DNA from: Escherichia phage Pandora71
Sequence record: PV841870.1
Reading direction: 5' to 3' (one strand)
DNA length: 44,696 bases
The notes under the pieces are model-generated. The model was given only the letters and a program-made list of their open reading frames with translations. It searched no databases and had not been told where the DNA came from. Positions 2,010 through 2,352 of this stretch are shown here, piece after piece. Position 1 is the first letter of the stretch; every line of letters starts with the position of its first letter. Position numbers and translations under genes: made by a program.

Positions 2010-2026
2010 TTATGCAAGCGTGATAT

Positions 2027-2061
2027 AGTCCCAGTGAGATAAAACTTACTGGGACTTTTTT
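2027..2061 (+). terminator. stem-loop plus T-run (rho-independent terminator-like)
   Basis: AGTCCCAGT / ACTGGGACT 9-bp stem, 12-nt loop, TTTTT; ends one base before holin ATG. Confidence 0.5.
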
Positions 2062-2352
2062 ATGGATAAGCTAAACGAGTGGTTATTCGCCCTCGCATGT
2101 CTGGCTGGCGGCTTCGTAGGCGCACGCATTCATGGCGAGGCTACGAAAGGGCCGCTAAACTTCGTTTTATATATCGTGGTCGGCTTCTTGTGTGCCATCT
2201 TTGGCGCTCCAGCCATTGCCGAGTGGGCTGGCCTATCTGGAGAGCGCACTGTCGCCGGTTTGGGCTTCGTAACTGCAATCTTCTGGATGCCAATAGCCGC
2301 CCGGATCAGGGAGACTATTGAGTCGTTCCGACTTCCGGGGGGCGCAAAATGA
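2062..2352 (+). CDS. holin-like membrane protein (96 aa)
   Basis: small protein with several hydrophobic segments directly upstream of endolysin. Confidence 0.6.
   Translation: MDKLNEWLFALACLAGGFVGARIHGEATKGPLNFVLYIVVGFLCAIFGAPAIAEWAGLSGERTVAGLGFVTAIFWMPIAARIRETIESFRLPGGAK

Follow-up and report, generated by a model that had tools for sequence, protein, structure and literature searches.

A putative promoter embedded in a terminator hairpin ahead of the holin gene of Escherichia phage Pandora71

Introduction

How is a holin gene expressed when its start codon directly follows a transcription terminator, and where on such a message would the ribosome bind? This question is raised by the genome of Escherichia phage Pandora71 (PV841870.1; 44,696 nucleotides (nt), analysed here at full length and called the window), in which a stem-loop and a run of T residues end immediately before the ATG, at 2062, of the first holin-like gene of the lysis cassette. 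The window is a Dhillonvirus genome (an HK578/SO-1-like E. coli siphophage); its 1600-3300 segment is matched by 152 phage records at 80-95% identity, nearly all of them Escherichia/Shigella Dhillonvirus. A preliminary description of the sequence pointed to a possible extended -10 promoter element overlapping the left arm of the stem, and proposed that RNA started there would contain the right arm only and so avoid the hairpin that stops transcripts arriving from upstream. Examination of this locus, its relatives and its predicted RNA structures leads us to lean, if only slightly, towards a model in which the embedded promoter escapes a hairpin that would both terminate transcription and occlude the Shine-Dalgarno (SD) sequence of the holin gene.

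Results

A terminator hairpin and an extended -10 element overlap ahead of the holin gene

The hairpin occupies positions 2027-2056 of the + strand, on which all features described below lie unless otherwise stated. It comprises 12 bp, including one G.U and six G-C pairs, between the 5' arm AGTCCCAGTGAG (2027-2038) and the 3' arm CTTACTGGGACT (2045-2056), which are joined by the loop ATAAAA (2039-2044); the preliminary description had its coordinates right but gave it a stem of 9 bp. The T-run at 2056-2061, six T's when T2056 of the closing pair is counted, would provide both the U-tract of an intrinsic terminator and a U-rich spacer right before the start codon. Across Dhillonviruses this run is T6 or T7, and SO-1 has one A inserted ahead of it. 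The 44-nt segment containing the hairpin folds at -20 kcal/mol, compared with -5.3 ± 2.1 kcal/mol for dinucleotide shuffles (z -6.98; 0 of 200 shuffles as good). The hairpin alone, at -19.3 kcal/mol, is more stable than the neighbouring terminators at 3263 (-15.3) and 4854 (-11.7), and it ranks first among the terminator-like matches in 1-8000. Judged by these features, 2027-2061 is a predicted intrinsic (Rho-independent) terminator, with a G+C-rich stem-loop and an adjoining U-tract. A search of the whole window with Rfam 15 gave no match at the gathering score; the best match below it, NsiR1 (28.1 bits versus 39), was discarded as probably a generic hairpin-plus-U-tail likeness.

The extended -10 element, TGaTATAGT (TGATATAGT), is found at 2021-2029 and overlaps the left arm of the stem, as first described. 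It consists of TG-n followed by the hexamer TATAGT (2024-2029), which matches TATAAT at five of six positions, with A at position 2 and T at position 6, and its last three nt are the first three of the hairpin 5' arm. A weak -35-like box, TTCGAT, lies 17 bp upstream (2001-2006); by eye it aligns with TTAAGA or TTAGGA in Kagunavirus and with CTAAGA in the metagenomic sequence L068. Transcription is predicted to start 7-8 nt past the -10 element, at 2036-2037, inside the 5' arm. No other promoter candidate was found within the 52-nt gap before the holin gene.

The contexts of similar elements were judged by eye against a rough gene map of the longest non-overlapping open reading frames (ORFs), compared with the annotations of phages SO-1 and mckay. 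On the + strand 13 sites have no more than one mismatch in the hexamer; six of these are intergenic or at a gene boundary (65, 2021, 3453, 4885, 19373 and 26806), and two other intergenic extended -10 elements lie 30-35 nt upstream of start codons (65 before ATG 101; 3453 before ATG 3495), a spacing that resembles that at the holin gene. The idea of a 'class II' promoter, with an extended -10 followed by CCC (2021, 4885 and 26806, with a gap at 3453), was abandoned for having too few sites.

The holin start codon is unambiguous and its Shine-Dalgarno sequence lies in the hairpin

The ATG at 2062-2064 is the start of the holin gene, since a TGA at 2035-2037, three codons inside the stem, closes its reading frame and no further in-frame ATG, GTG or TTG occurs between that stop and 2062. 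After 2062 the next such codon in frame is Met76, and annotated relatives use the same start. A dual-start holin of the lambda type was rejected given this single ATG, the closed frame and the distance to Met76. The best pairing with the 3' end of 16S rRNA is made by GGGA at 2051-2054, within the hairpin 3' arm and 7 nt from the ATG. At -3.9 kcal/mol, it is among the weakest of the 28 gene starts that were scored (range -2.4 to -11.1 kcal/mol). The initial impression that the gene has no clear SD sequence was therefore roughly right as to strength, but overlooked this GGGA remnant in the 3' arm. The accompanying suggestion of a near-leaderless mRNA does not fit the geometry: the -10 element ends 32 nt before the ATG, and a start at about 2036 would leave a 26-nt leader that contains both GGGA and the U-run. 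A -10-like hexamer was also sought 7-12 nt upstream of the ATG and is absent from this stretch, which reads GGGACTTTTTT.

Folding of the two predicted RNAs points to a possible two-way gate

For five representatives of the lineages described below, we folded an RNA that begins 70 nt upstream of the -10 element and one that begins at the predicted +1, 7 nt after the hexamer. In the read-through RNA the predicted probability that the SD sequence is unpaired was 0.000-0.006, that is, paired at 0.994 or above, in all five cases; in the promoter-started RNA it was 0.61 for the window and 0.76, 0.17, 0.59 and 0.34 for the others. The window RNA from the predicted +1, G2036, retains no more than three nt of the 5' arm, and its 26-nt leader, GAGAUAAAACUUACUGGGACUUUUUU, is unstructured. 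In these models the hairpin is an SD-occluding structure as well as a terminator.

These observations suggest that 2021-2061 could act as a compact two-way gate heading the lysis cassette. Polymerase arriving from the upstream unit of small genes, for which there are candidate promoters near 38-80, would copy the full hairpin and the U-run, and most of its transcripts would end at about 2057-2062. In any RNA that reads through, GGGA would be held in a stem of -19 kcal/mol that ends 5 nt before the AUG, leaving the holin untranslated. The host sigma-70 polymerase, using the extended -10 element that overlaps the 5' arm, would instead start RNA at about 2036; this RNA would lack the 5' arm, so that neither hairpin nor termination is expected. 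It would offer an open, A/U-rich leader of 26 nt with GGGA and AUG free, from which the holin could be translated. Ribosomal protein S1 has a role on open U-rich leaders, and the U-rich character of this one would probably aid holin translation. As upstream RNA would be either stopped or silenced, holin synthesis would depend only on the embedded promoter and would be insulated from upstream transcription. Throughout, we infer promoter activity, the transcription start site, the efficiency of termination and the effect on lysis timing from the sequence. The geometry seen in six lineages, together with the predicted folds, supports the original proposal that promoter-started RNA escapes the hairpin and that upstream RNA is stopped.

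The element is conserved within Dhillonvirus and rebuilt with different stems in other lineages

Among 23 distinct Dhillonvirus sequences, drawn from viral contigs, metagenomes, SO-1 and mckay, positions 2014-2038 and 2042-2061 are invariant; these contain the promoter motif, both arms and the T-run. Within the hairpin only loop positions 2039 and 2041 vary, as do 2010 and 2013 just past the upstream stop codon, and the holin coding sequence immediately 3' varies at 1-7 columns in every 15 nt. Part of the invariant block is GCGTGATAT, which lies mostly outside the stem, and this indicates a constraint other than the hairpin.

Homologous holins with 40-70% amino acid (aa) identity are found in five further lineages: Dhillonvirus type B (L014, L037 and LM40P1), the Guernseyvirinae genera Kagunavirus and Jerseyvirus, and the metagenomic lineages L068 and L116. 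The element reads TGATATAGTCCCCAGTGAG-loop-CTTACTGGGGCT-T6-ATG in Dhillonvirus type B, TGTTAATATCCCCCGTG-loop-CACGGGGGAT-TTTATT-TTG in L068, TG[C/G]TATCCTCCAG-22 nt-CTGGAGGAT-TCATC-TTG in Kagunavirus and TGGTATCCTCTGGTC-loop-GGCTGGAGGAT-TTATT-TTG in L116; Jerseyvirus has the Kagunavirus layout with the stem extended to 13 bp. All lineages have a TGnTA...T element overlapping or abutting the 5' arm by 2-5 nt, a 3' arm that includes the SD sequence, and 5-7 nt of T-rich spacer between the stem and the start codon. The SD sequence of the Guernseyvirinae is the canonical GGAGGA and the arm opposite it carries CCUCC, the core of the 16S anti-SD. Kagunavirus and Jerseyvirus also have the weakest U-tract (UUCAUCUU), yet their SD sequence is paired with the CCUCC arm, which, with the occlusion predicted in the window, departs from the initial view of the hairpin as a terminator only.

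Each of the six elements gives a more stable fold than its shuffles do (z -2.8 to -7.0). Where the arms carry substitutions, pairing is mostly preserved through G.U on the + strand, with A-U replaced by G.U in L071, L106 and TU03 and two such changes in L116; L091, a Kagunavirus variant, has an A.C mismatch at a pair where other variants have G.U. The + strand folds better than the - strand in four of the six lineages, for example at -13.8 versus -4.5 kcal/mol in L116. Stems that are truly different cannot be aligned by column, and fold statistics are for that reason given per lineage. The retention of one architecture with unrelated stem sequences supports the reading of a promoter within a hairpin, a comparison of layouts in which we claim no statistical covariation.

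The layout is absent from two more distant holin homologues (27-33% identity), those of Pantoea phage MED16 and Pectobacterium phage Wc4-1, and is thus not common to the whole holin protein family; in MED16 an ordinary terminator lies about 40 nt upstream and is followed by an SD sequence. A metagenome scan and a profile protein search for further lineages returned mostly the same genera, with L116 the sole new one, and the phage collection had no close relative of the L068-type holin.

A separate observation concerns the start codons. The Guernseyvirinae, L068 and L116 begin the holin with TTG beside a strong SD sequence (position 1201 in L018 and L019; 326 in L068), and Dhillonvirus combines a weak SD sequence with ATG; SD strength and start-codon strength thus resemble a trade-off at the same position.

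Similar geometry occurs at two further terminators of the genome

Three of the seven strong + strand terminators found in our own scan (2027, 15634 and 19382) carry TGATAnAnT ending between -1 and +2 nt from the start of the stem. The chance of three in seven, in a rough post hoc estimate, is 4e-6 with the genome-wide rate of the motif and 8e-5 with its rate in AT-rich windows. This recurrence supports a promoter reading of 2021-2029. At 15625-15676, after the major tail gene, TGATAATAT abuts the hairpin GGGGCCAGCACGGCCCC (15634-15650), the -10 ending 1 nt before the stem, and T6 and ATTGGAGAATATTACA-ATG follow; the site is kept in mckay (TGTTAATAT) and in LM40P1 (TGTTAACAT), the latter with a different but complementary stem. 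At 19373-19413, TGATAAAAT abuts the hairpin GGCCCTCACTACAACGTGGGGGCT, followed by T5 and an ATG at 19411 which, and not 19372, is the minor tail protein start annotated in mckay. Its layout, GGCCCTCAC...GTGGGGGCT-T5-ATG with a G-rich 3' arm, closely repeats that at the holin gene. Phage mckay and the divergent LM40P1 have conserved both sites, with compensating changes in the stem, and a G.U pair of the 19382 hairpin becomes A-U in LM40P1. The other two terminators in the first 5 kb, at 3264 and 4854, follow the usual arrangement in which the promoter comes second.

Weighing of alternative explanations

Several observations weigh against the embedded-promoter model. The -35 box is poor, with TTCGAT matching at two of six positions, and a promoter scan that required both hexamers did not list the site; the -35 hexamer is dispensable for the extended -10 class of promoter. 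The string TGNTATNNT occurs 20 times against 14.2 ± 3.7 expected, so that extended -10-like strings are not enriched genome-wide, and TGATA and TAA are stop-codon-rich strings of the kind expected at gene ends; indeed, the TGA at 19373 is the stop codon of the tape-measure gene. Our literature searches, Dhillonvirus genome papers included, yielded neither mapped 5' or 3' transcript ends nor any reporter or toeprint data for Dhillonvirus, Kagunavirus or Jerseyvirus. In the Kagunavirus sequence L018 the predicted promoter-started RNA still pairs the SD sequence with coding sequence (the unpaired probability of 0.17 above), and the - strand folds better than the + strand. Column-wise covariation in a MAFFT alignment of Guernseyvirinae and L116 was not significant (0.096 versus 0.086 in shuffles, 115 of 500 as high), because the alignable set varies too little; the structural argument therefore rests on differences between lineages, and these share ancestry. 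The strong terminator features of 2027-2061, the poor -35 box and the lack of genome-wide enrichment would suit a locus that is a terminator only, at which TGaTATAGT is incidental A/T-rich sequence at a gene end. The lysis genes would then be expressed from the read-through fraction, and poor translation of the holin, by way of the U-rich spacer and S1 or of hairpin breathing, would keep holin levels low. We consider this explanation unlikely. It does not account for TG-n-TA...T keeping its position with respect to the stem across six lineages with differing stems and flanks, including Kagunavirus and Jerseyvirus, where the U-tract is poorest. Nor does it explain the invariance of a motif that is mostly outside the stem in the 23 Dhillonvirus sequences, or its recurrence at the same offset at three of the seven terminators. 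Moreover, with the SD sequence fully paired in read-through RNA, hardly any translation of the cassette's first gene would be expected.

Sequestration of the SD sequence in every lineage, by an arm that resembles the anti-SD, could also belong to a translational operator with no internal promoter, in which all holin mRNA comes from upstream and a trans-acting factor opens the hairpin late. A phage RNA-binding protein, cleavage by RNase III or ribosomes terminating upstream could act in this way, and phage K1ind1 has a gene annotated 'RNA-binding protein' elsewhere in its genome. We regard such an operator as improbable, as the Dhillonvirus U-run would end most of these transcripts before the ATG is transcribed and the conserved TGnTA...T would be left unexplained. 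The upstream stop codon lies 18 nt before the stem, and a ribosome terminating there, judged by its usual footprint on mRNA, would probably be too distant to melt the stem. No candidate factor emerged: a Pfam scan of six upstream proteins and the two holins gave no match and revealed no Q-like antiterminator or other regulator. The palindrome might alternatively act as DNA, as an operator that overlaps the promoter and is bound by a dimeric phage regulator. GGGAC/GTCCC half-sites recur at 3446-3474, where the inverted repeat GGGACCG-N14-CGGTCCC brackets the extended -10 element at 3453, and GCGGGACA, which has the GGGAC core in common with the hairpin 3' arm, occurs 16 times against about 2 expected. 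That common core is only 5 nt long, however, and the varied stems and loops of the lineages (loops of 6 to 22 nt) are ill-suited to a fixed spacing of half-sites. Pairing through G.U, which corresponds to C.A mismatches on the other strand, and the better fold of the + strand in four of six lineages speak for RNA, as does the identity of the Guernseyvirinae arms with the SD sequence and its complement. We consider a DNA operator very improbable, and continue with the embedded promoter and SD-occluding terminator as the preferred model.

Genes and other elements around the locus

On the rough gene map, both ends of the window form a control region rich in repeats, and 101-2009 contains eight small + strand genes of unassigned function. 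The last gene of this upstream unit (1722-2009; TAA stop at 2007-2009) encodes a small membrane protein of phrog_2531, and its stop codon is 18 nt from the hairpin. The lysis cassette that follows is flanked in our terminator scan by terminators at 2027 and 3264. It consists of the holin-like gene (2062-2352; 96 aa; phrog_2359, 'holin'), a second holin-like gene (2349-2594; phrog_2508, 'holin' in PHROGs) and the endolysin gene (2581-3072; Phage_lysozyme, PF00959 in Pfam). PHROGs names the two membrane proteins by family only, so 'holin' is a family label here and the function is putative. The ATG of the second holin gene overlaps the TGA of the first (ATGA), an arrangement from which its translation is probably coupled to that of the first. 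A small ORF (3089-3256; phrog_11068) between the endolysin gene and the intrinsic terminator that closes the lysis transcription unit (3264-3283) would be the final gene of this unit. Beyond that terminator lie a phosphoesterase/exonuclease gene, the terminase genes and the structural genes. Many relatives match 1600-3300 in two pieces with about 100 extra bases (in SECphi4, 1699 query bases versus 1797), which indicates that an indel segregates somewhere in or near the lysis region.

The 3264 terminator is followed by a promoter, TTGACT-18-CATACT (3293-3322), whose spacer contains TTGGTTGC on the reverse strand. Downstream of this promoter are a good SD sequence, GAGGAG, and a hydrophobic ORF of 26 codons (3353-3433; MARNDIWVLAIWSAAAFIGMVICELL) that is unannotated in SO-1 and mckay. 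The inverted repeat at 3446-3474, at -18.1 kcal/mol as RNA, encloses the extended -10 element TGGTATATT (3453-3461) upstream of a gene at 3495. The -10 of this repeat is within the loop and transcription is predicted to begin in the 3' arm; the SD sequence is outside the stem and no T-run follows. The repeat may be an operator or an unrelated structure.

The motif TTGGTTGC occurs 20 times against 1.8 expected, mostly between genes when judged by eye and in several tandem pairs (41-79, 3300, 10754-10775, 26863, 30047-30066, 31958-31982, 38555-38578, 41460, 44276-44372 and 44646). Some copies are fused to a -10-like string (TATATTGGTTGCA, TAATATTGGTTGCA and TAGATTGGTTGCA). The motif resembles a family of promoters or operators specific to the phage, maybe of an early class; the putative holin promoter does not carry it. 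The GCGGGACA copies form two clusters. The one at 44424-44526 appears to be the 'region B' repeat annotated in SO-1, the note to which mentions a similar 'region A'; the other, at 16354-16610, lies upstream of the tape-measure gene where the rough map has only short - strand ORFs, and this 16.3-16.6 kb cluster may represent iterons or an origin. Near the end of the window, the control region contains a long inverted repeat rich in G+C, AGTCTTTCAGACTAGACGGGGGTCAGTGGCCCCCCTCGTCTGAGACT (44530-44580).

Discussion

If confirmed, the holin element would be a host-type promoter and an intrinsic terminator fused in about 40 nt and sorting transcripts by their origin. It would offer a mutable handle on holin dosage and lysis timing, and a compact insulator part for synthetic biology. 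It would also be a caution for annotation pipelines, in which the site would be called only as a terminator and the holin gene would seem to lack a ribosome binding site. Therapy collections and the BASEL collection now commonly include Dhillonvirus, Kagunavirus and Jerseyvirus. A wider proposal, that a promoter inside a terminator is a general strategy of Dhillonvirus, shared by the Guernseyvirinae at the holin gene, and that it also provides a regulator-free holin timer, is in our view doubtful. Were it true, the sites at 2027, 15634 and 19382 would each stop or silence incoming RNA and launch a hairpin-free RNA from the same 50 nt. Heavy early transcription from TTGGTTGC-type promoters would occlude the embedded promoter and terminate just past it, and holin mRNA would appear only after early transcription subsides.

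Known systems provide several points of comparison. In phage lambda, the sdi stem-loop of gene S selects between the Met1 and Met3 starts and so sets the ratio of holin to antiholin. The element described here is likewise an RNA stem-loop at a holin translation initiation region, but it serves a single start. The lambda promoter pR' lies upstream of a complete terminator, tR', which its transcript contains unless Q modifies the polymerase. Both arrangements place a terminator between a promoter and the lysis genes; that of pR'-tR' and Q was ruled out for Pandora71, as the predicted start is inside the terminator. With the start within the hairpin no antiterminator would be needed, unlike the case of lambda Q. 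Our literature search for holin genes with stem-loops that sequester the ribosome binding site found nothing relevant.

The holin locus also resembles the ordinary terminator-then-promoter junctions of this genome (3264/3293 and 4854/4885), where one unit ends and the next begins within a short gap. It differs from them in that the -10 element precedes and overlaps the 5' arm, the predicted start falls inside the terminator, and the junction and leader together occupy 52 nt. Promoter-terminator coupling, in which the two signals can share or abut DNA, is reported as widespread in bacteria in a recent preprint (bioRxiv 10.64898/2026.08.19.745784). Another preprint reports extended TGn sigma-70 promoters inside T7 class II terminators (bioRxiv 10.64898/2026.02.12.705533). 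As presented there, these terminators are hairpin-less and in synthetic contexts, and include no skipped 5' arm of the kind proposed here.

The closest parallel is found in phage T4. When early or middle transcription extends into e (lysozyme), soc, 49 or I-TevI, the resulting RNA folds into a hairpin that covers the SD sequence, the AUG or both, which in the case of gene e lowers lysozyme synthesis about 100-fold; late promoters lie within the DNA for the 5' strand of the hairpin, so that late mRNA lacks the inhibitory arm and is translated, and T4-related phages retain the arrangement with varied stems (PMC3014915). As at T4 gene e, RNA started upstream of the Pandora71 holin is predicted to hide the SD sequence in a hairpin, and a start at the predicted +1, 2036, would skip the 5' strand. 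The T4 cases have been shown experimentally, whereas the holin element is predicted from sequence, and the gated gene is here a holin and not, as in gene e, an endolysin. The U-run that follows the hairpin in Dhillonvirus, L068 and L116 is a further difference from T4, and the element should on this account also terminate transcription. T4 uses its own gp55-dependent late promoter, TATAAATA, which makes its switch explicitly temporal. The holin site has no TATAAATA and instead has a sigma-70-like extended -10 element, so that it would work like the T4 cases without being the same regulatory element. If confirmed, the T4 logic of a late promoter inside an inhibitory hairpin would extend to siphophages of E. 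coli and Salmonella. Taken together, these comparisons suggest that the holin element of Pandora71 represents T4-like logic in a different phage group, which, given the T4 cases, would be unsurprising in principle.

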